Source: Planctomycetota bacterium (GTDB taxonomy: Bacteria > Planctomycetota > B15-G4 > SIAN01). Taken from it: a stretch of 64,000 nt of DNA. Within the stretch, counting starts at the first letter, position 1, and every line of letters begins with the position of its first letter. Positions 4,399 through 33,380 of the stretch are shown in pieces. The stretch is from positions 86,030-150,029 of the forward strand of contig JANQQL010000018.1 of NCBI GenBank assembly GCA_028289345.1, read 5' to 3'. The notes under the pieces are model-generated. The model did no database searches and was not told the DNA's origin. It was given only the letters and a program-made list of their open reading frames with translations. A program made the position numbers and the translations under genes.

Positions 4399-6005
4399 GC
4401 GTTCGTTTTCGCCTCTCGGTCATGATGTTTCTGCAGTACGCCATCTGGGGCGCGTGGCTGCCCATCCTGTGGCCGTTCCTCGCCGGCGCGCGAGACTTCA
4501 CGGCCTCACAGATCGGCAACATCTTCGCCGTCGGTGCTCTTGGAGCCATCGCCGCGCCGTTCGTGGTGGGCCAAATCGCCGACCGCCATGTCGCCACAGA
4601 AAAGATTCTTGCCGTCAGCCACCTACTCGGAGCCATCTTGGTGTGGATCCTTGCCACGGTGGATTCCTACTCCGGATTTCTGGCGTTCTCCTTGCTCTAT
4701 TCGCTGATTTACGCGCCCACGCTCCCGCTCACCAACTCCATCGCCTTTCATCATCTGGCGGACCGCGACACCGAATTCGGCAAGGTTCGGGTTTGGGGCA
4801 CGGTCGGCTGGGTGGTGGTTGGGATCGCGGTGGGCCACTGGCTGTTGTCACAACACACTCCCGCTTCGGACATCGCCACCGCGGCGTTTGTCGAAGAGCG
4901 CGTTCTGAACGAAGAACAGCGACTCCGTCTGCGGAGCGAGTCGGAGATCACTCTCGAAGATGGCTCGGTTCTGACCGGGACCTCACGGCAAGAAGGCGAC
5001 GAAATCGTCGTCATGACGGAAGGCAGCGAACGACGACTCGCGGAGCAAGAAGTGGCCCTCGTCCGACCGTTGAGCGAAACCTTCGCGGCCGACGGAAAGG
5101 CCGAGGAGTTTCAGACCTTCTTGACCACGGTGGACAGCACCGATGACTCGCAGGCCCTCGCTTCGGATCTGATCGCCCGAGGCCTGCTGGCCGAGACGGC
5201 CTTGCAGGGACCGATCCAACAAGCACAGAACCGCGGGCGGGCCGATGCGTTTCGACTCTCCGCGATCCTTGGAGTTTTGCTGGCCCTGTTCTGCCTAGTG
5301 CTGCCCCACACGCCACCCCAGAAGGGAGAACAATCCTCCGCCACCCGAGAAGCACTTCGCGAGATCAAGAAGAGTCCGCTGCTGATCCTGTTTCTTTTGG
5401 CGGTCCCAGTCAGCTGCATTCACCAGTTCTACTTCGTTCATACCGCCGGTTTCCTGAGCGGGTTCGAGTTCGAGACGGGATGGATCGATGCGGTGTTCGG
5501 AGTCGGCGGTGGCGGCCTCATGACCGTCGGCCAAGTGTCGGAGATCCTCGTTCTGGCCGTGATTCCCCTGGTCGCGAAGAAGGTGTCTCGAAAAGTTTTT
5601 CTCGGCCTCGGACTGCTCGCCTACGCCTTGCGTATGGCAGGCTTCGCCTACGTAGAACAGCTCGCCGAGCTCGGCATCCCTCCCGCGCTGACGCTGATCG
5701 CCAGTCTCGCTCTCCACGGTTTGTGTTTCGGCTGCTTCATCTTTGTTTCGTTCATGATCGTCGATGAAGAAACGACCGGAGATGTACGGGCTAGCGCCCA
5801 GAGCCTCTACAACTTAGTCATCATTGGCATTGGCATCATCGTGGGGAGCAAGTTGGCGGGAATCGTCCAGGAATGGGCGACGCCAGATTCCGCGGTCAAC
5901 TATTCCAAGCTGTTTGCCGTGCCCTTGTGGGCAAGTCTGGTTTGCCTTGTGCTACTTTCGGTGTTCTATCCCGCGAAGCGCCAAACTCGGAGTTCGACCC
6001 CGTGA
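4395..6005 (+). CDS. MFS transporter, NupG/XapB-like nucleoside:H+ symporter family, with long central hydrophilic insertion
   Basis: FLQYAIWGAWLP motif matches the NHS-family FLQFCLWGSWL. About 12 predicted TM helices. ATG at 4395 overlaps the ThuA stop (ATGA). A roughly 115-aa charged loop sits between the two halves. Confidence 0.75.
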   Translation: MSVRFRLSVMMFLQYAIWGAWLPILWPFLAGARDFTASQIGNIFAVGALGAIAAPFVVGQIADRHVATEKILAVSHLLGAILVWILATVDSYSGFLAFSLLYSLIYAPTLPLTNSIAFHHLADRDTEFGKVRVWGTVGWVVVGIAVGHWLLSQHTPASDIATAAFVEERVLNEEQRLRLRSESEITLEDGSVLTGTSRQEGDEIVVMTEGSERRLAEQEVALVRPLSETFAADGKAEEFQTFLTTVDSTDDSQALASDLIARGLLAETALQGPIQQAQNRGRADAFRLSAILGVLLALFCLVLPHTPPQKGEQSSATREALREIKKSPLLILFLLAVPVSCIHQFYFVHTAGFLSGFEFETGWIDAVFGVGGGGLMTVGQVSEILVLAVIPLVAKKVSRKVFLGLGLLAYALRMAGFAYVEQLAELGIPPALTLIASLALHGLCFGCFIFVSFMIVDEETTGDVRASAQSLYNLVIIGIGIIVGSKLAGIVQEWATPDSAVNYSKLFAVPLWASLVCLVLLSVFYPAKRQTRSSTP

Positions 6006-6028
6006 ACCTCTCCACTTCCCTCTCGGGA

Positions 6029-6916
6029 ATGTTGTTCTTGGTGGTGTCCACCTTCCCGGCTTGTGCCGAGGACGAATCCGCCGCGGCCTCCCACGACGAG
6101 TCCGATTTCCTGCGATTCGTTCGCCACGCGGACGATCACGCCACTTTGGAAACCTCGGTGGCGACCTACGTCGATGAGAACAACCGAAGGGTGGACTTGG
6201 TCGGTGCCGTGCACGTGGCGGACACCTCGTACTACGAGACCCTGAACCTGCTGTTCGGCGGCTACGACGCGGTGCTTTACGAACTGGTCGCCGACGCGGA
6301 CACCCGTCCCACTCCAGGCCAAGGCGGGGACTCCATGGTGAGCGTCTTTCAACGCGCCATGAAAGACACCCTCGATCTGGACTTTCAGCTGGATGCCATC
6401 GACTATCACGCCAAGAACTTCGTGCATGCCGACCTGGATCCCGCGACGTTCGTGCGCTTGCAAGAAGAGTCGGGAGAGAGCCTGATCAGCCTCATGCTGC
6501 AGTCGATGATGAGCGAGTTCTCGCGCACCGTCGAGAATCCCGAAGAATCCACGGCTCAATCCCTGTCGTGGCTGTTGGCACTCTTCTCCAAGAACCGGGC
6601 CTTCTCCTTGAAGTTCATCCTGGGCCAGCAGTTCGAAGACATGGAGCGGTTGGTCGCCGGCTTCGAACGCAACCTACAAGGAGAGGAGTCGGTGCTGCTC
6701 ATCAAGCGAAACAATGCCTGCCTGAAAGTCTTGGAAGATCAGCTCACCGAAGGCAAGAAGCGCGTCGCCATCTTCTATGGTGCGGCCCACCTTCCCGACC
6801 TCGAGCAACGCTTGATCGATGAGTTCGGGTTCGCCAAGACCCGCGAGACCTGGCTTCGGGCCTGGAACATCCAGCGGGAGCAGCTGGAGAAAGAAGCTCC
6901 GACGACCGACGAGTAG
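6029..6916 (+). CDS. TraB/GumN family protein
   Basis: Motifs VDLVGAVHVADTSYY and AIFYGAAHL are characteristic of the TraB/GumN (PrgY-like) family. An N-terminal hydrophobic segment is present. An alternative GTG start at 6002 would overlap the MFS stop. Confidence 0.65.
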   Translation: MLFLVVSTFPACAEDESAAASHDESDFLRFVRHADDHATLETSVATYVDENNRRVDLVGAVHVADTSYYETLNLLFGGYDAVLYELVADADTRPTPGQGGDSMVSVFQRAMKDTLDLDFQLDAIDYHAKNFVHADLDPATFVRLQEESGESLISLMLQSMMSEFSRTVENPEESTAQSLSWLLALFSKNRAFSLKFILGQQFEDMERLVAGFERNLQGEESVLLIKRNNACLKVLEDQLTEGKKRVAIFYGAAHLPDLEQRLIDEFGFAKTRETWLRAWNIQREQLEKEAPTTDE

Positions 6917-6963
6917 GACTTCGGACGGGAAAAGAACCCAACGTCCCCTCGACTCGTGAGGCC

Positions 6964-8487
6964 CTACTCGAAAGTGAGGGTCACCACCTCCGAAATTCCG
7001 GCCTTGCCACTGAACTGCTTGGCGATGACTTGGAAATCCATGGAGAGTCCGGAAAACGCCGGCGGCCCGAAGTAATCGAAGGTCCACTGTCCCTTCGCGT
7101 TGAACGGCGCGACAAACATGGTGATGTTGGCCGGGACTGCGTCGATCGCCACCAGACGCAGGATGTGCCAACCGCCCGGCTCCCCCCCCACGGTCCCCAT
7201 GGTCAGGGGCTGAAAGGTCTGCACCGTGGTCGGTGCGATCCGAAACGCCAGCTCGGGAATGCGAAACAGGTGGACGGCACCTAAGTTGCCGGCTTCCTGC
7301 CAGCTTCCCGTCACGACCTCGAGGCCCACCAGGGCAACCGAATGCCCGAGTTCCTCGCCCCCCGCGGCAGCGGTGGCCTCCAGAATGTGCTGCTCCACCC
7401 ACTCTTCGCCATATTGGCGAAAGACATAGGCTGCTCCCGAAAACGCGGGGGTGTTGGCCAGGGGGGCGCCGACGACCAGATTGCCGCGCTGCAAAGCGAC
7501 CGCGTGACCGAACTCTTCTCCTCCGACCGCGTCCGAGGCCTGCAATTTCTGCTCTGCTAGGTACTGATTGCCGTCCCACAGGTAGGTGAAGACTGCCCCG
7601 GAGTTGCTTGACGGCTCGCTGCGACCGACCGCTCCCCCAATCAAAGCGCAGTCGTCGAGCCCCACCGAGTGACCGAATCGATCATTGGAAGCCGAGTCAC
7701 TGGGCACCACCTTTTGCACCAATCCCCAGGTGATCCCGTCCCATTCGTAGACGTAGACCGCCCCCCCATCGAAGTTTCCGTCGTCGTCATTGGGAGAGCC
7801 GATGGCGATTCGATTGCCGTGAACGTCCACTGACGCGCCGAACCGATCGGCGGCGGCGGCGTCCGCGGGGGTGATCTTCTGCTCTTCTCTCCAGACGATC
7901 CCGTCGTAGCGATACACGTACACGGCGCCGGCCTGGGTGCCGTTCTCGGAATCCCACTTGGCGCCAATCACCGCGACATCGCCATCGACATCCAGGGCGC
8001 TGCCATACAACGCATTCGCCTGTCCGTCAGAGGCTGTCAGCTTGAACCCCTGGACCCAGTCAAAGCCGTTCCAGCGGAAGGTGTAGGCGGAACCGGCGTT
8101 GATCCCGTTGTCGTCGTCCCACAGCGCTCCGACCAATACGACGTCGCCACTCATCGCCACGGCAAGACCAAAGTTGTCGCCGGTCTGGCCATCGCTCGGG
8201 ATCAATTTCTTGACCAGAGACCACATGCCTGCGTCGCGTTGATAGAGGTACGCGGCGCCCGAAGCCGGACCGGAACTCGCGTCACCATTGGCACCGAGCA
8301 CCAGGAACTCCTGGTTCTCGTCCATGGCGACGGCGGCGCCGACTTGGTCTCCCGCCACTGCTCCGACCGGCACGATGCGGTCAGTTTCCGTCAGGATGTT
8401 CGTCGCCCCGGCGGTCGATGCAGCCAGGCTCACACTCAAGAAGACGAGTGATTGGACGACGACGGGGGGTGGACCCGCCCGTTCCAT
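6964..8487 (-). CDS. Secreted FG-GAP-like repeat protein (beta-propeller)
   Basis: Signal peptide after MERAG. At least five repeats of D(N/R)FG-x-(A/S)V-x-(G/A), e.g. DNFGLAVAMSGD, DRFGASVDVHGN, DRFGHSVGLDD, EEFGHAVALQRGN, EELGHSVALVG. Confidence 0.65.
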   Translation of the reverse strand: MERAGPPPVVVQSLVFLSVSLAASTAGATNILTETDRIVPVGAVAGDQVGAAVAMDENQEFLVLGANGDASSGPASGAAYLYQRDAGMWSLVKKLIPSDGQTGDNFGLAVAMSGDVVLVGALWDDDNGINAGSAYTFRWNGFDWVQGFKLTASDGQANALYGSALDVDGDVAVIGAKWDSENGTQAGAVYVYRYDGIVWREEQKITPADAAAADRFGASVDVHGNRIAIGSPNDDDGNFDGGAVYVYEWDGITWGLVQKVVPSDSASNDRFGHSVGLDDCALIGGAVGRSEPSSNSGAVFTYLWDGNQYLAEQKLQASDAVGGEEFGHAVALQRGNLVVGAPLANTPAFSGAAYVFRQYGEEWVEQHILEATAAAGGEELGHSVALVGLEVVTGSWQEAGNLGAVHLFRIPELAFRIAPTTVQTFQPLTMGTVGGEPGGWHILRLVAIDAVPANITMFVAPFNAKGQWTFDYFGPPAFSGLSMDFQVIAKQFSGKAGISEVVTLTFE

Positions 8488-8689: not shown

Positions 8690-10426
8690 TCATTCCGACG
8701 CCCCCTCGGCTTCGGTGAGGGCATCCGCGAGGCGTTGTTCCAGCAGCCGCATTCGCTCCTCCGCCGCCGCTCTGGATTGGCGCAGTTCTTGGATTTCGCG
8801 CTGCTGTCGTTCGAAGAGTGCGTGCAAGCCCTGGATCGCGGCCATGGTCACCCCGCTGGTGTCCAGCGCCGAGACGTGACGTTCGTCCGCTCCCAGCCCG
8901 TAGGCCGAGTGAAAGTCCTGGGCCATCGGCCCCATGTGCCGCGGCCGGGATCCCTCATTGGCCCCCTTCTTGTAGGACCAGGTCATCACCGGAAGATCCA
9001 GCAACTGGGCCAACACTTGCGCCGGGTTCACCGGTTCCAGGTCCTGCTTGGCATGGGCATCGGACAATTGACTGAGGGTTCCGCTGATGGTGACGTTGCC
9101 ACCACTCGCCACCCGCAACTCGGTGTCTCCCCCCGCAAAATTCTTCAACACGAAGTCGGTCCCGGAAGTTCCCATCTGCCAAGCGTTGATGAGGTTCGCC
9201 GTCTTGTCCTGAAACAACACGCGAACCGGGCCATGATTCCTCATCTCCAGAAGCTGACGGGTCGCCGGGCTTGGCTCGAACTCCTCGAGGTGGAGTTTCA
9301 GGCTTCCCTGATCGCCAAGCAGGAACGTCTGGCCAATGACCGCGGCCGTTCCTGCGACGTGCAACTTCGCTTCCGGGAGAACTGTGCCGATCCCCACGTT
9401 TCCATTCCCACGCACCACCAAGCTGTTGCTCGGGGCCCCGGACTGGACCCGGAAAGGAGTGCTTCCCGCGGTCGCATCGCGCAAGAAGAAGTTGATCTGT
9501 CCGCCGGCCAGATCCCATGCCTGGGGAGGAAGACCGAGGGAGGCGTCTTGCTCGAGCCGGCACAGGGGTGTGTTGCCACGAACCAGATGAAGGTCGGCGA
9601 TGGGTGCCGAAGTTCCCAGGCCGAGCTGCCCCTGCCCATTCACGCGGAGGGCTCCCTCGGGCGCTCCGGCGTCGACTCGCAACGGAGAATTCCCCGTGCC
9701 GAGATCGACCACGGAGAAGTGATCCGCTCCCCCATTCACCATGTCGTTGATCCGCAGTTCCCAATCGTTCCCCGGAAACAGATTGGTGCTGGTGTCGTGG
9801 AAGCCAATGCGCAGGTTGTTTTCCTTGAGACGCAGCGTGTCGGCATCGAACACCTCGTCGACGACGCAGTCCAGCCCAATGCAGGAACTCCCGAACACGA
9901 TGTGATCATCGAGCACCGACACATCCTCGGACGGGCCATCGTCTTCCGAATCTGCAGCGTGGCCGGGAAGAACCAGCTGCCCTTGGCGAATCCAAAAGTG
10001 CCCGGATTGCTTGGCAACAGGCGTCGCCGACCACGAGTCGGTCAGAGCCCGGGCGGCCCGTTCATTCCCGGTTCGCAACAAGCTCTCGAGACGCCGTTGC
10101 TGCTTCGAAGTCGGCGCCACGACTCGAGTGAGTTCGAACGAGTACATTCCCTCGGAACGCGGCTGGCCCGAGTCGTCCAGTATTCGAAACAGTGGCCAGA
10201 CCCCCGGCGCAAAGCGACGTTGAACATGCTGCCCGCTCGGTCCCACCACGGTGAGGTCCAAAGCGCAGGTGGAGTCTTCGGGCCGCCACGCCACTTGACC
10301 GTGAGAACCCCCATCCATCGTCGCGACCTTGGGTCGCGACGGCTCGGCGGCGGCGCAAGGAGTGCCAGAAAGCAACAACACCGCAAGACAAGACAATGAC
10401 ACGGATCGACAATGACCAATCAGCAT
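8690..10426 (-). CDS. Tail-fibre-like secreted protein with C-terminal peptidase S74 intramolecular chaperone (CIMCD) domain
   Basis: Signal peptide MLIGHCRSVSLSCLAVLLLSGTPCAA. Repeated beta-helix-like segments (GNSPLRVDAGAPEGALRVNG / GSTPFRVQSGAPSNSLVVRG / GDTELRVASGGNVTISG). The C-terminus LSDAHAKQDLEPV...WSYKK...HMGPMAQDF, followed by a coiled coil, matches the S74 autoproteolytic chaperone domain of phage tail spikes. Confidence 0.7.
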   Translation of the reverse strand: MLIGHCRSVSLSCLAVLLLSGTPCAAAEPSRPKVATMDGGSHGQVAWRPEDSTCALDLTVVGPSGQHVQRRFAPGVWPLFRILDDSGQPRSEGMYSFELTRVVAPTSKQQRRLESLLRTGNERAARALTDSWSATPVAKQSGHFWIRQGQLVLPGHAADSEDDGPSEDVSVLDDHIVFGSSCIGLDCVVDEVFDADTLRLKENNLRIGFHDTSTNLFPGNDWELRINDMVNGGADHFSVVDLGTGNSPLRVDAGAPEGALRVNGQGQLGLGTSAPIADLHLVRGNTPLCRLEQDASLGLPPQAWDLAGGQINFFLRDATAGSTPFRVQSGAPSNSLVVRGNGNVGIGTVLPEAKLHVAGTAAVIGQTFLLGDQGSLKLHLEEFEPSPATRQLLEMRNHGPVRVLFQDKTANLINAWQMGTSGTDFVLKNFAGGDTELRVASGGNVTISGTLSQLSDAHAKQDLEPVNPAQVLAQLLDLPVMTWSYKKGANEGSRPRHMGPMAQDFHSAYGLGADERHVSALDTSGVTMAAIQGLHALFERQQREIQELRQSRAAAEERMRLLEQRLADALTEAEGASE

Positions 10427-10698
10427 GATCGACTTCCCAGATGAGTGAAACAGGGAGAACGGCACTGCGCAACGGGCAGTTGGTCGTCACCCCAGGGGCA
10501 CGGACAAACGGCATCTTCCTTAGCTTGAATTCCATGGAACGGTGGGGATGCAGAGCCCAAAGCAGCTTCCTCTGCGTCGATGGGAAACGAGTTCCCGATC
10601 TTGTTGCTCGGAATCCAACCGTACCGTCCAGGGAACGCGTTTCGGGGGTTGCTGTGAGGGACTGTTATGCTCCTTGACGACAGCCTCGTTTCCTTCCA

Positions 10699-13600
10699 TT
10701 GCTTGTTCCGTCCTCTTGCACTGGGTGCATTCTCATGGTGACCCTGCCCGCTTCATTCGGACTCGCGGCAATGCTGCTCTTGGTTCCACTCGACGAGTCG
10801 GCATCTGCGACCGATTGGGAAGCGGCGGGACTGTGTGCGCCGGCGAACTGCTGGACGATGAGAGACGGTTGCCCCGCTCGATCCGGATACAGCCTGACTC
10901 CGGGCCTCCGGGGGCCGTTGCAGACTTCATGGAGTTTCCAGACTCGCGGAGAGATCGAAGAAGAACCACGGATTTGGGACGAGTTCGTGTTGGTCAGCGA
11001 AAAGGTCAAGGAGGATCGAAGAGTCCTGCACGTCGTGGACCTGCTGCACGGCAATGTCGTGGCCAAGGAACCGGTTTCCTCCGAGGTGGCCCTTGGCCCG
11101 TCAGTCTGGAATCGCGTCGTCGTCCTCCGCACGGGACCTCGGTCGCTGTCGGCCTTTCGCATCTACGCGACCAATCTCAAGCTGCTGTACCGATGGGAGC
11201 TTCCCGGAGATTGCTCGGAACCGGTGCTGCTTGGCAGAAGGTTCTTCCTGCGCGTCGGAAGCGAGATTCATGGGTACCGTCTTGGTCGAGCGGAACCTCT
11301 CTGGACCACCCCCGGCAACTTTCGTGGCGAAGTCTCCGTTTTGGGAGATCATTTGTTCGCGGTGGACTACCGCGGGCGCATGGGGGAGCTGGTTTGGCTG
11401 GATCGCGAGACCGGCGAGGAGTCCCGGAGCTTTTTCGTCGGGCAGCACGGTGGTCAGCAACCGTCGCGCTCATCGTCGACCTGTGTTTCGCTCACTCCGT
11501 GGAATTCGATCGTGCGGCACAGCCTTCCCATCGAAACGAACCTGGACCGGGATGACGCGAACTGCGTGTTCCTCCAAGGAAGCCCGGTCCCCCCACCGAA
11601 AGAGGACCCGGCCAGCGGCGTCTTGTCATTGGAACGCGGCCCGGTGCTGTGGGAACAGGGATTCCTCTCCCTGATGCAGAGTGAGCAGGGACCAGCGATG
11701 TTGATCCTTGACGAGGTCGGAGACGGACGGGTCCTCGCGTCGAAAACGTGGCACTCGGATTTCCTGAATCAGCCGGTTCCGTACACGCGAACCAAGGACG
11801 TCTTGTACGCAGGAATGCGAGGAATCGACAGCGAGACGTTCGAGATTCTTTGGAACGAGCCCGAAACTCCGCCACACTTTCGGGTAGTTCCGGGGAGGGA
11901 AACGGCATTGGTCGTGGACCGACCGAACCAGTTGACCGCTTGGCGACCGGCGGCCTCCGTCAAGAGACCGCGGTTTCATGAACTGCCGGAGGCTTCGAGC
12001 GAAGGAGCTGGCTCCACGAACTGGAAAGGCACCTTGGTGTTTCGGGACGGTTCGGTCCACCAAGGCGAGTTCACCGTCTCGCCATGGAAACCCAAGTTGC
12101 GAGAAGTGGTCATCCGCGCTCGCTCCAAGAAATCCTCCGCCTCGCGCTGGACCTTGGAAGAATTGCTGGTGGCGATCGATGACGACCATCGCTTGCTCTA
12201 TGCCGGCCCCGAGGACGACTTTTTGTGGGGCCTGGAACTGCTGGTCGAGTCACGAACCGCGGATGCCTACGCCGAGCTCGCTGCCGAGGCCGCGGGTGCG
12301 AACGACCCGGAACTCTTGGAGCGATTGCTGGGAGAAGCAACCCGACGCGGCACCCAGGAGTGGCTGACCGTCTCGCGAGCAGAAACCAAGCTCTCGAAGA
12401 TGCACGAGTCGATCGACAAGGGCCGCCCTCCCAAACGCAAGGACCGGGTGGCCGAGTCTGTCGAGAACAAAGAGTCGGAGGTCACACGCCTCCCCATCGA
12501 TTTCTTGTGGAAAGAGATCGAAGCGCTTCCCGAGAGCGCGCCCGACACCGTCCTTCTCGACTTGCTCCGAACTCTGGTGGAGCGCGAACCCGATCATGAG
12601 GGGGCCGCGACGCGAGTGCGGGAACAACTTCCCGATGACACCGAGCCGCCCCAGGGCTTCGATGCTCTCGAATGGATCGATTTCCTGGAAGCCATTCGCC
12701 ACACTCAGATCACCATGCTGCATCCTGATCTCCAGGCGTCTGGATGGGAAACCGAGCAAGCATTGCTTCAGCAAGCGCAGCAGGAATGGCGCACGGATTT
12801 GGTCGGGATTCGAAGCCCGCGACTGCTTGTCATCACTCCTTTGCACAATCCCGGACGCATCGCTCGTTGTCTGGCGATGGGAGAGCTGGTGTGTGAGTCG
12901 CTGGAAGAGCTGTTCATTTCTTCATCCGAGGAGCTGCGCGGGACCGACCGGCCGATGACGCTCTACTTGTACGAGTCCCAGCAAGAGTATCTGGGGAACG
13001 CGGGAGCATCGGCGGCCTTCCTCGAGTGGTCTTCTGGCCACTATTCCCCGACGGAAGGCCTCGAGAAGATCTTCCTCCCCACCGACAAGGATGCCTTCGA
13101 GCGCGTCATGGACACCTACGCTCACGAACTCACCCACCACTGGATCTTGGAACGTTGTCCGACCGTGACGAACCCCGATCCTCGAGCGGCATTCCATCAA
13201 CCGGGCTTCTGGATCGTGGAGGGACTCGCTTCCTTGTTGGGCTCTTTTGACTTCCGCCCTCGCGAGAAGAGCTACCGGTTCGATGCGTTGCCGGAATGCC
13301 TGGACTTGCTGGCCAACGCCCCAAGCGGCGATCTGATTGCTTGGAACGACTTGTTTCAGATGTCCCAGAAAGACTTTGCGATGCTCCCGAGCGGCGAGGA
13401 GAACAGTCTTCGAATTCCCTTGGCTCGCTCCCTTGGCCTTGGGCGGCAGATCGATCGCAAATCCCTTTTCTACGTCCAGGCAGAGGCGGCGTGCCAGTAT
13501 CTGTTCCACCACAGTCGCGGGACGAGAAACCAGCTACTCCAGTACATCGGGGACTACTACGGCGCCCGGACCGAGCGGACCACGATCTCGGGCGCATTTG

Positions 13601-17453: not shown

Positions 17454-17531
17454 TGGCGCGCCCGAGAGGATTCGAACCTCTGACTCCCTGCTTCGGAGGC
17501 AGGTACTCTATCCAGGCTGAGCTACGGGCGC
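17454..17531 (-). tRNA. tRNA-Arg (anticodon CCG)
   Basis: Reverse complement GCGCCCGTAGCTCAGCCTGGATAGAGTACCTGCCTCCGAAGCAGGGAGTCAGAGGTTCGAATCCTCTCGGGCGCGCCA folds as a cloverleaf. Anticodon loop CUCCGAA. Near-identical to canonical bacterial tRNA-Arg(CCG). Encoded CCA. Confidence 0.85.
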
Positions 17532-27746: not shown

Positions 27747-27823
27747 GCGCCCGTAGCTCAGCTGGATAGAGCAGCGGATTTCTAATCCGCTGGTCGCAGG
27801 TTCGAGTCCTGCCGGGCGTGCCA
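27747..27823 (+). tRNA. tRNA-Arg (anticodon TCT)
   Basis: GCGCCCGTAGCTCAGCTGGATAGAGCAGCGGATTTCTAATCCGCTGGTCGCAGGTTCGAGTCCTGCCGGGCGTGCCA folds as a cloverleaf with anticodon loop UUUCUAA, a T-loop TTCGAGT and encoded CCA. Confidence 0.85.
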
Positions 27824-28808: not shown

Positions 28809-28913
28809 TGGGGACTCCTTTCGCCCTGACAGTACGAATCGTACCATTGTGTGTTGGAGTCGATTCGACCTTCTCTGAAGGAGTCTCGCTCATTGCCCGA
28901 GCCAGGAGCCTCC

Positions 28914-29450
28914 GTGGACACACTAACCGAGTTGGACCACATGATCCTGGGCGTCGTCGGGCTCTACGGCCCCTGCACCGGTTACCGGGTGCGAAGGGTG
29001 TTCCTCGAATCGCTCTCGCCCCACTGGAGCGGCTCCGCGGGCGCGATCTATCCAGCACTCGAACGCCTGACACGACTCGAGTTGGTCGACAGCAAGGATG
29101 ACCACACAACCCGGCGACAAGGCAAGTTGCTCTCGCTGTCACAAGCGGGAAAGAAAGCGGTGGCGACGTGGCTCAAGCCCCCGCTCGATGCCGGAGCGCT
29201 CCTCGACCTCGACCCGCTTCGCACCCGAGTTCGCGTGCTGGGCCTGGTGCCCCCGGCCCAACGCCAGCGCTTCGTCGCTTCCGCGCTCGAACAGCTGGCC
29301 GCCCTCGAGCAGGAGACCCGGTCGATGCTGCGGGACTCCGAGGCCGGGGACGACCCCTATCACACACTGGTTTGCAAGGGCGCGCTGAAGTCCCTTCAAG
29401 CACGCCGGCGTTGGCTGGCCGAGGTCGCCGCGGAGGTGGCCTCGAAGTAG
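28914..29450 (+). CDS. PadR family transcriptional regulator
   Basis: LTELDHMILGVVGLYGPCTGYRV is the PadR winged-helix signature. GTG start at 28914 with AGGAG 5 nt upstream. Divergent from the protease gene. Confidence 0.65.
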   Translation: MDTLTELDHMILGVVGLYGPCTGYRVRRVFLESLSPHWSGSAGAIYPALERLTRLELVDSKDDHTTRRQGKLLSLSQAGKKAVATWLKPPLDAGALLDLDPLRTRVRVLGLVPPAQRQRFVASALEQLAALEQETRSMLRDSEAGDDPYHTLVCKGALKSLQARRRWLAEVAAEVASK

Positions 29451-29930: not shown

Positions 29931-30866
29931 TTGGAATCATCCCTCCTTGTATTGGTCCATGTGCTCTCGAGTGGGCTCTTTGGCATTTTTCAGCATCAGG
30001 TCGGCCGGAATCGGTGTGACCGCCTGTTGTTCATGCAGGTGGTCTCCCTAGTAACGTGCCTCGTCAACAGCACTCTCTTTGTTCGGTGGGCTGGAACGAA
30101 CGGAGCGCGGTGGTCGTTTCCACTGGAAAACCTGCGGTTAACCTTCGTGATGTTGCTGCTCGGAGGTCTTTTCTTTGCCCTGTTTTTCTCGCGCCTCTTA
30201 GTGAAAGAGTTTCTTCCCTCGTTCGTTTTTGCGCCTCTCTACCGACTGCAAATGCCAATCGTAGTCCTTGTCGCCATCTTCTACTTGCATGAGGAGGCAT
30301 CAGTCATTCATACGATTGGACTCTTCTGCGCATTCGTCCCTCTCATCCTTGTTGCCACTCCTCCTCGCGTTCAGACAAATCAGCGTCGATTCAACCATCG
30401 ATCAAAGCCACCTCGGTACGGACCCAGGTGGATTCGGGGTGCCGCACTCATGATGGTGGTCGTTGCGCTCGCGGCTTGCCTCCAACTCTCCACAAAAGTG
30501 CTGACCGCTCACGATCTATTTGCAGTGCCTCCTCTGACGTATGCAATGCTGCTGAATATCGGAACATTGTTCGTTGGCCTGATTCTTCTCATTTCGAGAA
30601 CAATTCGAAGCAGAAGCATCCGCGAACCTCGTCTGGCGATCGTCCTTGGCCTAGCAGCAGGCCTTGTCAACGCCGTGACTTTGCTCAGTTTGGCAGTGTA
30701 TCTCGTCGACGGGCGAGCAAGTGTGATCTACCCTGCCGGCGCGATGTCCCTATTCATCCCAATGATCGCCTTCGGCTATCTGGGCACCGAGCCACGGCCG
30801 TCCCCGGTGCAAATTCTGTCCATTACTCTCGCCACGGCGGCAACCCTACTACTGATGGGCTCTTGA
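29931..30866 (+). CDS. EamA/DMT-like polytopic membrane protein (within low-GC island)
   Basis: About 10 TM segments with internal duplication. The C-terminal LGTEPRPSPVQILSITLATAATLLLMG resembles the EamA repeat end. TTG start at 29931, with an alternative ATG at 30033. Lower GC than its surroundings. Confidence 0.45.
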   Translation: MESSLLVLVHVLSSGLFGIFQHQVGRNRCDRLLFMQVVSLVTCLVNSTLFVRWAGTNGARWSFPLENLRLTFVMLLLGGLFFALFFSRLLVKEFLPSFVFAPLYRLQMPIVVLVAIFYLHEEASVIHTIGLFCAFVPLILVATPPRVQTNQRRFNHRSKPPRYGPRWIRGAALMMVVVALAACLQLSTKVLTAHDLFAVPPLTYAMLLNIGTLFVGLILLISRTIRSRSIREPRLAIVLGLAAGLVNAVTLLSLAVYLVDGRASVIYPAGAMSLFIPMIAFGYLGTEPRPSPVQILSITLATAATLLLMGS

Positions 30867-30881
30867 TGAAGGAGTGCCTGA

Positions 30882-33380
30882 ATGATCCAGCGATGGTCGG
30901 CTGCGATGTACTTATTTGCCCATCTGGGTACGCAAACGCCAGAGGCTGGGCCACTGGTCACGATCAGCGTACCCGATGACCAATCTGATTGGAGTGAGCT
31001 GAACAGATACCTCAATGAAGAACTTCGCACACTGAATGCGTCGATCCGCATCAAGTTCACAAAGCGTGACATCGACTCGGCGCTCCATGAATTGGCGAAT
31101 CCGAGTGACAACAACGTCGGTGCCTTACTCCCACCGTTTCGCTATGTAGTCGCCGACCTCGTCGTGAATGACCTCGAGCTCGTCGCACGCATCCGACGTG
31201 CAGGACGTTTCGTCGTACCCCAGAGTGACTGGGACAACAACAAGCGTCCCGACTCTGACCCAGAGTATGCCGAGTACAACGCACCAGAGCCTCTTGATCA
31301 CTACCGGAGCCTGGTGGTGATGCACCGCAACTCAGGAGTGTGGCCACCTCCCCTCCCGCGTGACCTTTTCCGTGCACAGTCGATTCAAGAACGAAACCTC
31401 GACAAGGTAACCATCTCTTTTTCCGGTTACCGATCGACTTCTGAGTTCGTTTACCCCTTCGCTCATATCACGCGAAAGGGCTGGCGCGATCGCATCGTAG
31501 AAAGTCCGCGACGTACGGCCGGCCGACGTGAGGACGCCTGGAAGTTAAAGATGGTGTCCGTGGATAGCGCTCACTACGGAGACAAACGGGAAATCGCGGA
31601 ACGCAAGCAGCTCACGGAGAGTCTCGCATCGGAAACCGGCGACTTTCAACTTTTCTGTACAAGCGACCATAAGTTCTACGCCTCGTATCCGAACGAAAAA
31701 GCTCGCCATGCGAGATTTGAGGAGGTGTACCGCTCCCCTCCGATTCCCTTTGATGCACTGGTTGTTCGAAAATCCGCCCTCGGGCTCGTGGAACTTCAGA
31801 AGCTCAGGCGAGCTTTCCTCTCGACCCGCGACATGGCCCCGAAAGAGCGAGCAGAGTGTTTTCCATGGAGTCCTACTGAAGATGACAACCAGTCATTTCT
31901 GCGCTCTCCGGATGTCCACGATTTCGTCGAAGCCGATGATGCGGAGTACGACAAGATTCGCCAGGAAGCCGCGGTAGCATTTGGTGGAGCAATCGTGCGA
32001 GTTGCGGTCGCGAAGCAAGTGCACCGCAGCGAATCCCGAGACATGATGTTCTTTCGCCAGTGGATGAAGGACGTTCTGAAAGCACAACCGGATTCACCGG
32101 TGTTCCTTGACTTCGTGTACTACGACAGTTTCGACGAGATCGCGACAGATCTCAAAGACGGCAGAGTGCACCTCGGAGAGCTCAACGTAACTCGAGCCGC
32201 CACTCTCCTGGGACGTGAGGAGGGTGTACTGCTAGGACGCTCCGTCTTTGGCGGCGAGGACTTCTATCGATTCGTAATCGTGACGGCTGAGCCGAACAAG
32301 AAGACGGTCGATAGCATTCAAACGGCCGGCCCTTTCGCGATCACCTCGCGGGCATCTGGCTCCGGCTTCGTGTATCCCGTCGAATACCTTCAATCCAGAG
32401 GCCGAAGCCCGAAAGAACGAATTGAAGTCGGAAATGCTGACAACGTCCTCGACGCAGTTCTACGCTATGCCAACGAAAGCCAAGATCCAAAGTCTGCACT
32501 TTACGGCTTCATGGCCGACTTCGAATTCGAGAAAATCAGGAGACGCTGGCCCGAAAAAGCCATCGAAAAGATCGGAACCATTGAAGTTCATGAAGAGCAA
32601 GCGAGAATTCCCAACGCAATGCTCATTGCCTCAAAGGGCGCGTTCCCGATGGTCGGCACTTGGTTTCAGCGCTTGTCAACCGGGCACGAAAAGGATGAGA
32701 GCTCTGATGGGCGAAACGCAACTGCCGTTGAACAACCGCTGTCCACGAAGACCACTGACATCCTACGCGATGCAATCATCGCGAACCTGTCGTCGGAGGC
32801 ATTCGGAGGCTACCGACGGGCGACGCAAGATGACGTGGATGAGCTCAGCGAGCTCTACTGGAAAACTGCGAAGCGACCAGTCGCCATTATCGTCGGTGTC
32901 CTAGCCGTCGGAATCATCGCCTCCACATTGTGCGTCATCTGGGTCTATCGACGGGGCGTCTCATCTTCGAGCGAAGATCAGCGGGTGGTTTCAATTCAGA
33001 GCATTTGGGACGTATTGAAAGGCGGTGTCCCAGACGATCGAATGGCCCGAGATCTCATTTGCATCGGTTTGCAGATTTTTGGGCAACTGAAAGACGACGA
33101 CGGGAAGCTCAAGAAAGTCTTCGGTTCTCCTGCAGCGCTTCGGAAAGAGCTGGGCGACGCCCTGCTAGCCGTACTGGTCCGCCATCAAAGTGATCGCACC
33201 TTGTCTGACGAGACATACTACTACACTCATCTAGACAGACTGGACAGGGTGGTCAGGAAAGCCACGTCAGAGATCGATAACTACCTCAGTCGTGTTGATC
33301 GACCCGAGACTAGCGAATCGGCCGACTGGCTCTCAAAATGGGTGCGGACGCTGGATACCGTCAAGAAGCTAATTGACTGA
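30882..33380 (+). CDS. Large hypothetical protein: two tandem PhnD/SsuA-like (type-2 periplasmic-binding-fold) domains, single TM helix, unknown ~170-aa C-terminal domain
   Basis: AAGGAG 8 nt upstream of ATG 30882, and coupled to the upstream gene. Motifs TISFSGYRSTSEFVYPF and FAITSRASGSGFVYPVEYLQSRG resemble the PhnD substrate-binding fold. TM helix VAIIVGVLAVGIIASTLCVIWVY. No kinase, GGDEF or other known output domain. GC ~52-55%. Confidence 0.6.
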   Translation: MIQRWSAAMYLFAHLGTQTPEAGPLVTISVPDDQSDWSELNRYLNEELRTLNASIRIKFTKRDIDSALHELANPSDNNVGALLPPFRYVVADLVVNDLELVARIRRAGRFVVPQSDWDNNKRPDSDPEYAEYNAPEPLDHYRSLVVMHRNSGVWPPPLPRDLFRAQSIQERNLDKVTISFSGYRSTSEFVYPFAHITRKGWRDRIVESPRRTAGRREDAWKLKMVSVDSAHYGDKREIAERKQLTESLASETGDFQLFCTSDHKFYASYPNEKARHARFEEVYRSPPIPFDALVVRKSALGLVELQKLRRAFLSTRDMAPKERAECFPWSPTEDDNQSFLRSPDVHDFVEADDAEYDKIRQEAAVAFGGAIVRVAVAKQVHRSESRDMMFFRQWMKDVLKAQPDSPVFLDFVYYDSFDEIATDLKDGRVHLGELNVTRAATLLGREEGVLLGRSVFGGEDFYRFVIVTAEPNKKTVDSIQTAGPFAITSRASGSGFVYPVEYLQSRGRSPKERIEVGNADNVLDAVLRYANESQDPKSALYGFMADFEFEKIRRRWPEKAIEKIGTIEVHEEQARIPNAMLIASKGAFPMVGTWFQRLSTGHEKDESSDGRNATAVEQPLSTKTTDILRDAIIANLSSEAFGGYRRATQDDVDELSELYWKTAKRPVAIIVGVLAVGIIASTLCVIWVYRRGVSSSSEDQRVVSIQSIWDVLKGGVPDDRMARDLICIGLQIFGQLKDDDGKLKKVFGSPAALRKELGDALLAVLVRHQSDRTLSDETYYYTHLDRLDRVVRKATSEIDNYLSRVDRPETSESADWLSKWVRTLDTVKKLID

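Follow-up and report, generated by a model that had tools for sequence, protein, structure and literature searches.

What could be encoded by a gene that joins two phosphonate-binding-type domains to a single membrane helix and an unfamiliar C-terminal domain, and that lies directly behind a gene for a multi-spanning membrane protein? This question is raised by the open reading frame (ORF) at positions 30882 to 33380 of a 64,000-nucleotide stretch of a Planctomycetota bacterium genome (contig JANQQL010000018.1, positions 86,030 to 150,029, forward strand), the whole of which is referred to as the window. Together with the EamA-like gene immediately upstream, this ORF appears to form a self-contained, horizontally mobile two-gene membrane module, called the cassette in the following. 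We tentatively interpret the pair as a binding-protein-dependent transport module of the drug/metabolite transporter (DMT) type for an oxyanion-bearing solute, equipped with an accessory tail, a reading that we hold at just short of even confidence. Each of the domains comes from a known superfamily (PF12974 or DMT/EamA), and their combination is undescribed. The features on which the argument rests are:

29931 to 30866 (+), partner gene: divergent EamA/DMT-like membrane protein with ten predicted transmembrane (TM) helices, 311 aa from a TTG start at 29931
30867 to 30881 (+), intergenic spacer of 15 nt read from the sequence, with an AAGGAG ribosome-binding site: a tight operon junction
30882 to 33380 (+), whole ORF of the TM-anchored tandem PhnD-like protein: 832 aa plus stop
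30882 to 30950 (+), presequence, residues 1-23, MIQRWSAAMYLFAHLGTQTPEAG: weakly hydrophobic, aligned with the signal peptides of relatives
30951 to 31979 (+), D1, residues 24-366: PhnD-type binding domain, from profile matches and family alignments
31434 to 31442 (+), anion-loop motif of D1, S185-T186-S187 within YRSTSEFVYP: near-invariant in the family, aligned with the STS of PtxB and Escherichia coli PhnD
31980 to 32687 (+), D2, residues 367-602: second PhnD-type binding domain, best Pfam stretch 409-586
32355 to 32366 (+), anion-loop motif of D2, S492-G493-S494-G495 within SRASGSGFVYP: aligned with the loop of PtxB and AioX
32688 to 32879 (+), juxtamembrane region, residues 603-666 (64 aa): conserved G-F-x-G-Y motif (G640, F641, G643, Y644)
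32880 to 32948 (+), single TM helix, residues 667-689: from hydropathy analysis
32955 to 33377 (+), putative cytoplasmic tail, residues 692-832 (141 aa): four-helix bundle in an AlphaFold2 (AF2) model, family not recognised

The reading frame is intact, an in-frame TGA lies directly 5' of the ATG, and the AAGGAG box 8 nt 5' of the ATG represents a good ribosome-binding site. PF12974 (Phosphonate-bd) is the sole Pfam family that scores above threshold in the 832-aa protein (77 bits versus a cut-off of 27), in two stretches, and an ordinary single-domain PhnD profile maps onto it twice and collinearly (residues 81-109, 179-200 and 258-364 in D1; residues 386-526 in D2). The NCBIfam model of the PhnD subfamily (TIGR01098) stays below threshold with 29 versus 112 bits, and we therefore do not regard the protein as an orthologue of the PhnD of transport systems. 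A PDB sequence search with the protein itself returned no match. Searches of PDB sequences with family profiles recovered PtxB (5o2j, 6e-14) and E. coli PhnD (3p7i, 4e-09), as well as HtxB and ArrX, for D1, and PtxB (8e-10), AioX (5e-08) and ArrX (4e-05) for D2. The tandem PhnD-like domains of the original prediction, which had been made from the DNA letters without database searches, are thereby borne out. Conservation in both domains peaks at the Ser-x-Ser(-Gly) loop, at two aromatic residues and at the Asp of an IPxD motif, and it persists at an overall identity of 20-35%; in D2, the two Ser and the Gly of the motif and a downstream Pro are invariant in both subfamilies of the family described below. 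In published structures, the Ser/Thr loop of PhnD and PtxB touches the oxyanion of the ligand. As judged from these profiles, D1 and D2 are members of PF12974, each keeping a Ser-x-Ser anion loop of the PtxB/PhnD/AioX type; their PhnD-type fold is established at the level of sequence. Compared with canonical domains, D1 carries about 85 aa of lineage-specific insertions (around residues 110-178, 200-258 and 318-340), shows a Glu where the canonical motif has a Gly (STSE versus STSG), and scores poorly against PhnD profiles. The D2 motif is degenerate in certain relatives (GGDSSGVN in P0011, DTSSIN in P0021).

The second line of evidence comes from the gene order. An EamA-like gene lies immediately upstream of the binding-protein gene in all 12 readable contexts, always on the same strand, with a length of ~295-335 aa and multiple TM helices, and no other neighbour is conserved across these 12. 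The junction of the pair varies from an overlap of 52 nt to a gap of 41 nt outside the window, and stop and start overlap in six loci. The upstream genes are homologous to one another, as hold-out tests with a hidden Markov model (HMM) built from six partners recovered the held-out partners of L013 (4e-78), L009 (1e-21), L014 (1e-18) and L010 (1e-08); the window partner and the gene that precedes P0002 share 32% identity (E 2e-39). The pairing holds for 12 of 12 contexts because the only apparent exception, L004 (~5436-7984, upstream of P0003), retains its partner, split by an insertion sequence (IS): profile positions 5-210 and 215-297 flank a DDE transposase gene (DDE_Tnp_1, 6291-7622, minus strand), and the downstream binding-protein gene is intact. 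Moreover, across 10 loci, the pairwise identities of one protein follow those of the other (Mantel r 0.73, p 4e-4). The original prediction had noticed the EamA-like neighbour and suggested a ligand-sensing or transport accessory system; the search for conserved neighbourhoods, with its 12 of 12 paired contexts, strongly reinforces that idea.

The partner itself is a divergent protein. Pfam EamA reaches only E 0.004 on the window copy (17.9 bits versus a cut-off of 28.2), and is matched by five of six orthologues (best E 9e-09); the partner found no match among PDB sequences. It shows ten hydrophobic cores, and its positive-inside pattern predicts an N-out/C-out topology. Over the window partner and its orthologues, the mean number of Lys plus Arg residues is 14.7 in loops 1-2, 3-4, 5-6, 7-8 and 9-10, versus 4.2 elsewhere. 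Canonical DMT proteins of the YddG type are N-in/C-in, the opposite of the topology predicted here. Public gene calls place the start of this gene late (Logan, GTG at 29961, 301 aa; NCBI, a product of 277 aa starting at about 30033). All orthologues conserve the first TM helix, which both of these starts truncate, and the TTG at 29931 suits the family alignment better.

How the 832-aa protein sits in the membrane can be approached from its relatives. It contains a single strong hydrophobic segment (residues 662-691), in line with the one TM helix predicted at the outset. Residues 1-23 can be aligned, position by position, with the hydrophobic N-terminal segment of the closest homologue. N-termini that are clearly signal-like occur in the other full-length relatives (best 10-residue hydropathy 2.0-3.3); the presequence of the window copy is the weakest N-terminal hydrophobic segment among the full-length members. 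The earlier statement that there is no signal peptide is not secure for the window copy, whose presequence is weakly hydrophobic, and is probably wrong at the family level, where this presequence aligns with clear signal-like segments. A signal peptide in the family would reverse the topology implied by that statement, with the binding domains in the periplasm and the tail in the cytoplasm. The signal-like N-termini of the relatives and the higher number of Lys and Arg residues after their TM helix point to binding domains on the outside. By homology, the binding domains of the window protein should be periplasmic and its tail cytoplasmic, and the window copy may export its binding domains like its relatives.

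The family is rare. An exhaustive HMMER search against 1.84 billion cluster representatives gave 45 matches at E ≤ 1e-3, of which 14 at E ≤ 1e-30. Ten members that we looked up are representatives of clusters with one or two member sequences, all from metagenomes or metagenome-assembled genomes (MAGs), and one member of the sister group comes from a Candidatus Binatia MAG. Word-indexed homology searches are nearly blind here (two matches for the full-length query, two for the partner profile). Pattern scans of genome and metagenome contigs with the family alignments brought no new relatives, the sister-group scan recovering only the known Binatia MAG and one ordinary PhnD. There are two subfamilies, about 17-20% identical to each other, and in both a signal peptide is followed by D1, D2, the juxtamembrane region and the TM helix. 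In the sister group (P0017, P0018, P0019 and P0023; 570-600 aa), the two PF12974 domains score strongly (E about 1e-47 to 1e-52) and are free of insertions, and the protein ends 4-8 residues past the TM helix. The window subfamily is characterised by the D1 insertions and a variable cytoplasmic part: a tail of ~140 aa in P0001-P0007, P0012 and P0021, a helical tail of 273 aa (a long coiled coil) in P0015, and nearly no cytoplasmic part in P0009 and P0010. The tails of the sister group and of P0009/P0010, of 4-20 residues, go along with the same gene pair, which implies that the core function lies in the periplasm and the membrane. The search also revealed a relative, P0011 (L003:8001-10820, 939 aa), with the layout of a Toll-like receptor, i.e. 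a signal peptide, a tandem PhnD-like ectodomain, one TM helix and a TIR_2 domain (E 9e-11, with a Glu in the context VRLEVASAL), preceded by a DMT-like gene that it overlaps by 4 nt.

As to the tail, the presence of a C-terminal domain of no recognised family was foreseen correctly, and its length is 141 aa instead of the ~170 first given. AF2 with an alignment of nine sequences yielded a confident four-helix bundle (predicted local distance difference test, pLDDT, 75; predicted template-modelling score, pTM, 0.70), for which Foldseek found nothing at E ≤ 1e-3 in the PDB or a viral library. Fold searches returned generic bundles only, with similarities no better than those to designed helical bundles, and Pfam and PDB-sequence profile searches gave no match. 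A word-indexed search with the tail profile returned nothing, not even the parent proteins, and is uninformative rather than negative. The conserved columns are those of the hydrophobic core plus D710, D719, F747 and Y780; no conserved His, Cys, Ser or Lys is present in the tail alignment. Comparison with the 273-aa tail of P0015 gave an hhalign probability of 0.15%, i.e. no detectable homology, and the two are considered unrelated. We read the tail, on the basis of the model, as a putative non-enzymatic interaction or regulatory domain of a new family. It can be seen as an add-on, since the sister proteins work without it. No histidine kinase (HK), GGDEF, methyl-accepting chemotaxis protein (MCP) or other known module was found in the 832-aa protein by Pfam, NCBIfam and PADLOC, as had been predicted, and neither this protein nor the 10 relatives scanned carry a PAS, HisKA/HATPase or GGDEF transmitter. 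Full-length homology to a characterised family was looked for and not found; a truncated sensor kinase, the example put forward originally, was considered and rejected, the relatives being devoid of kinase domains and the ORF ending at a C-terminal helix conserved throughout the family. For the TM helix and basic tail of the sister group, we also considered a C-terminal sorting signal of the PEP-CTERM/GlyGly-CTERM type and rejected it, as no consistent motif precedes the helix.

The cassette stands out from its surroundings by composition. With 54.8% GC, its two genes are poorer in GC than every other stretch of their size in the window (mean 60.9%, standard deviation 1.7), and their GC content at third codon positions (GC3) is 0.60-0.62 versus 0.70-0.79 in the neighbouring genes, a deviation that ends at the gene borders. 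Elsewhere, the cassette lies 4-10 GC points below its flanks in L001, L004, L008, L009, L010 and L013, and equals them in L003 and L007, so that it is GC-poorer in seven of the nine loci with at least 3 kb of flank (the window included). This recurrent deficit points to horizontal acquisition on several occasions or to a compositional bias that persists in the module. IS genes adjoin two copies of the cassette. The cassette behaves as a horizontally transferred unit, and the proposal of a foreign-composition island is supported. In plasmid records, no relative of the 832-aa protein was detected, and a sister protein found only ordinary single-domain PhnD; phage relatives of the cassette proteins were not found.

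Based on these observations, the transport module that we tentatively favour might work as follows. The first gene would provide a divergent permease of ten TM helices with the DMT/EamA fold. The second would encode a bitopic protein, whose N-terminal part of ~640 residues would be exported and fold into two Venus-flytrap domains, tethered beside the permease by the C-terminal TM helix. These tethered domains would capture a small solute with a phosphonate-, phosphite-, arsenate- or thiosulfate-like oxyanion group, which is the substrate class that we infer, and would hand it over, through physical contact of the two proteins and presumably in the inward direction, to the DMT permease. The pair would then be a binding-protein-dependent secondary transporter like TRAP, TTT and TAXI-GltS, built on another fold. 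The 141-aa four-helix bundle would be a lineage-specific, non-enzymatic add-on, probably for regulation or assembly.

Such a module would differ from the systems to which it can be compared. D1 and D2 are homologous to PhnD, PtxB, HtxB, AioX and ArrX (PF12974) and keep their anion loop, flanking aromatic residues and IPxD Asp. Yet these known binders are single-domain proteins, soluble or lipid-anchored, that serve ABC transporters (PhnCE, PtxAC) or histidine kinases (AioS, ArrS), whereas the cassette protein is a tandem with a C-terminal TM anchor, a cytoplasmic domain and a DMT-like partner. ABC genes of the phnC/phnE type are adjacent in none of the 12 contexts, nor is a kinase gene, and the nearest ABC_tran gene on the window contig lies ~8 kb away, beyond a chemotaxis cluster. 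ABC importers of the GlnPQ and OpuA type carry tandem substrate-binding domains fused to the ABC transmembrane domain and are driven by ATP. They resemble the cassette in having two tethered binding domains in series at the membrane beside a translocator; the cassette contains no ABC component and has its anchor on a separate polypeptide with a single helix. With the EamA/DMT transporters of ten TM helices, including TIGR03340, the partner shares its ten hydrophobic cores and the weak EamA matches of most orthologues, but it scores far below the curated cut-offs of both models and has the opposite predicted topology. The closest parallel in organisation is offered by TRAP (DctPQM), TTT (TctABC) and TAXI-GltS, where a binding-protein gene is likewise co-localised and translationally coupled with the gene of a secondary-type permease (PMC12344293). 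The cassette permease, however, matches only EamA/DMT models and not DctQM, TctA/TctAB or the elevator-type GltS, and its substrate-binding protein (SBP) is PhnD-type, tandem and C-terminally TM-anchored with a cytoplasmic domain; its transport function is putative. The TAXI-GltS proposal rests on the same kind of evidence, namely co-localisation and translational coupling (PMC12344293). Until 2025, only TRAP and TTT were known to join a binding protein with a secondary permease, TAXI-GltS being the proposed third class, and its authors call for further classes to test whether an elevator-type permease is a prerequisite (PMC12344293). The cassette may add one more class to the binding-protein-dependent secondary transporters, or may represent a receptor coupled to a transporter. 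If the former is true, the supposed elevator prerequisite could be put to the test in a DMT system that depends on a binding protein and has a non-elevator fold, and PhnD-type oxyanion binders would gain a new partner in transport or signalling. Whatever the mechanism, three undescribed families are involved (the insertion-bearing tandem PhnD ectodomain, the DMT-like partner and the cytoplasmic four-helix-bundle domain), and the cassette is small enough for synthesis and hence directly testable, although all members stem from uncultured organisms.

Several points weigh against a transporter. No DMT protein is known to have a dedicated SBP, and searches of the literature brought up no account of a DMT/EamA permease that operates with a binding protein. 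Most DMT/EamA proteins export or exchange their substrates, and they are not of the elevator type. SBP dependence may rely on an elevator-type permease according to PMC12344293. A fused DMT-PhnD polypeptide did not turn up, a result limited by the fact that a proper search was not possible. The full-length AF2 prediction of the 832-aa protein, made with a two-sequence alignment, reached a pLDDT of 31 and gave no usable model of the ectodomain or of a complex. The presequence of this protein is only weakly hydrophobic, the best N-terminal 10-mer reaching a hydropathy of 1.34 with its peak outside the presequence. TIGR03340 (phn_DUF6, a phosphonate-utilisation-associated membrane protein), the only NCBIfam DMT model touched by any partner, speaks for the transport reading, but the link is weak, as the model is matched by a single partner of ten, that of L009 (E 5e-05, 23 bits versus a cut-off of 288), over positions 60-274 of the 281-position model, so that the relationship would be distant at most. 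Finally, the interchangeable cytoplasmic modules of the relatives (TIR in P0011, the 273-aa tail in P0015) resemble the outputs of receptors more than the anchors of transporters.

This last point leads to the alternative that survives best, and which we consider possible, if rather unlikely: the cassette protein could be a transmembrane receptor, whose tandem flytraps sense a periplasmic oxyanion and pass the signal, via the juxtamembrane region and TM helix, on to a cytoplasmic output that can be swapped. The DMT protein would then be a co-sensor or a regulated target, e.g. a ligand-gated exporter, similar to trigger transporter pairs. The binding domains of the sensor proteins BvgS and CdgH are SBP_bac_3-type and not PF12974. 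The BvgS kinases and the diguanylate cyclase CdgH show the same succession of two periplasmic binding-protein-type domains, one TM helix and a cytoplasmic part (PMC4352136, PMC5431781). PhnD-like domains are established as sensor domains, with the sensor kinases TtrS and ThsS using them for oxyanion sensing (PMC5408782), and the PDB matches include the signalling binders AioX and ArrX. A receptor would also fit with the variety of cytoplasmic modules among the relatives (a 140-aa bundle, TIR_2 with E 9e-11, a 273-aa helical tail) and with the conserved G-F-x-G-Y motif just ahead of the TM helix. However, unlike BvgS, CdgH, TtrS and ThsS, the cassette protein lacks PAS, HAMP, HisKA/HATPase and GGDEF domains, has a tail that is dispensable in the sister group, and comes with an obligate DMT partner. 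The core function does not require a cytoplasmic output, given the tails of a few residues in the sister group and in P0009/P0010; the tail itself displays neither a recognisable signalling fold nor conserved polar or catalytic residues, and no regulator, kinase or cyclase gene is conserved downstream in the 12 neighbourhoods. The transporter and receptor readings can overlap in what would be a transceptor.

An extension of the receptor idea, which seems improbable to us, is a platform in the style of Toll-like receptors, where the flytrap ectodomain would sense an extracellular oxyanion metabolite and the TM helix would relay the signal to interchangeable effectors (the four-helix bundle, or a TIR NADase in P0011), the DMT protein acting as a co-receptor or gated conduit. 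The TIR domain is absent from the 832-aa protein according to Pfam and present only in the distant relative P0011. If true, the family would be a one-pass system of signalling or conflict that has so far gone unrecognised and that has spread as a mobile cassette of two genes.

More doubtful again is the idea that the PhnD-like domains no longer bind a small solute and serve as a periplasmic scaffold, lid, assembly factor or binder of macromolecules or the envelope, in a module that exports a metabolite. The ~85 aa of insertions and low PhnD-profile scores of D1, its STSE in place of STSG, and the degenerate D2 motifs of P0011 and P0021 would fit with such a loss, and so would the general background that DMT proteins are typically exporters. 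Still, conservation in both domains is highest at the Ser-x-Ser loop, the flanking aromatic residues and the IPxD Asp, as expected under selection for ligand binding.

We think it distinctly unlikely that the window copy is decaying, i.e. that a degraded signal peptide strands the binding domains in the cytoplasm and leaves the gene non-functional here. It does have the weakest N-terminal hydrophobic segment of all full-length members, and its low GC speaks for a recent acquisition. But the ORF of 832 codons is intact, with a good ribosome-binding site and all family-invariant residues kept, the partner gene is intact too, and the seven residues AAMYLFA after an Arg could still serve as a minimal h-region of a signal.

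A defence-type module was also envisaged in the original prediction. In the form of an anti-phage or abortive-infection system, in which a sensor at the surface would act on a membrane or NAD-depleting effector, it is very improbable, its only hint being the TIR domain of one distant relative (P0011), while PADLOC found no match at E ≤ 1 for the 832-aa protein, the partner or the upstream PadR gene, no context holds neighbouring defence genes, relatives in phages and plasmids were not detected, a periplasmic oxyanion sensor is not a known principle of phage sensing, the tail-less sister group lacks any effector, and the tail carries no catalytic or effector signature and resembles nothing better than designed helical bundles.

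Some features of the surroundings deserve mention. Neither in the window nor in eight related loci was an Rfam element or riboswitch detected upstream of the operon, and the surroundings of the window operon revealed neither a sigma-70-like promoter nor a convincing terminator. A PadR-family regulator with a Vir_act_alpha_C domain is encoded 480 nt upstream of the cassette on the same strand (28851-29450, +); its gene has a normal host GC content (66%) and is not conserved beside other cassettes, and the regulator is probably not part of the module. A tRNA-Arg(TCT) gene (27747-27823, +) lies ~2.1 kb upstream of the cassette, with an aspartyl-protease-like gene and the PadR gene in between, and a second tRNA gene is found at 17457-17531 (-). 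The chemotaxis cluster downstream (35399 to ~41000, -) encodes a 534-aa protein with multiple CheW domains, CheD, CheR and a PAS-rich protein of 898 aa; nothing apparent ties it to the cassette, and its presence is not conserved across the other loci.

In the related loci, animal-haem-peroxidase genes (PF03098) occur a few kb upstream of two cassettes (L008:1470-2918, with P0015; L013:69-2891, with P0021), L008 containing LodA-like and FAD-halogenase-like genes as well. Either common descent or a link in function could lie behind this recurrence. Genes for 5'-nucleotidases adjoin the cassettes of L010 and L004, two PF01663 phosphodiesterases are encoded in L010, and NUDIX and GDPD genes adjoin the cassette of L003 (phosphoester-hydrolase genes at L010:3804-5111 and 9306-12641, L004:11136-12476, and L003:1-1813 and 6482-6958). 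The cassettes may thus have a phosphorus-scavenging context, the association being inconsistent across loci. Along with the ligand spectrum of PF12974 and the TIGR03340 match, these neighbours are weak hints to the substrate. A second, divergent cassette (P0021 and a 313-aa partner) is found in L013 (SRR20820731_2029), a contig from the same sequencing run as the window contig (SRR20820731_55614). Its GC content (54.9%, with flanks of 61.8%) is similar to that of the window cassette, of which it may be a paralogue, located in the same genome or in a related one.

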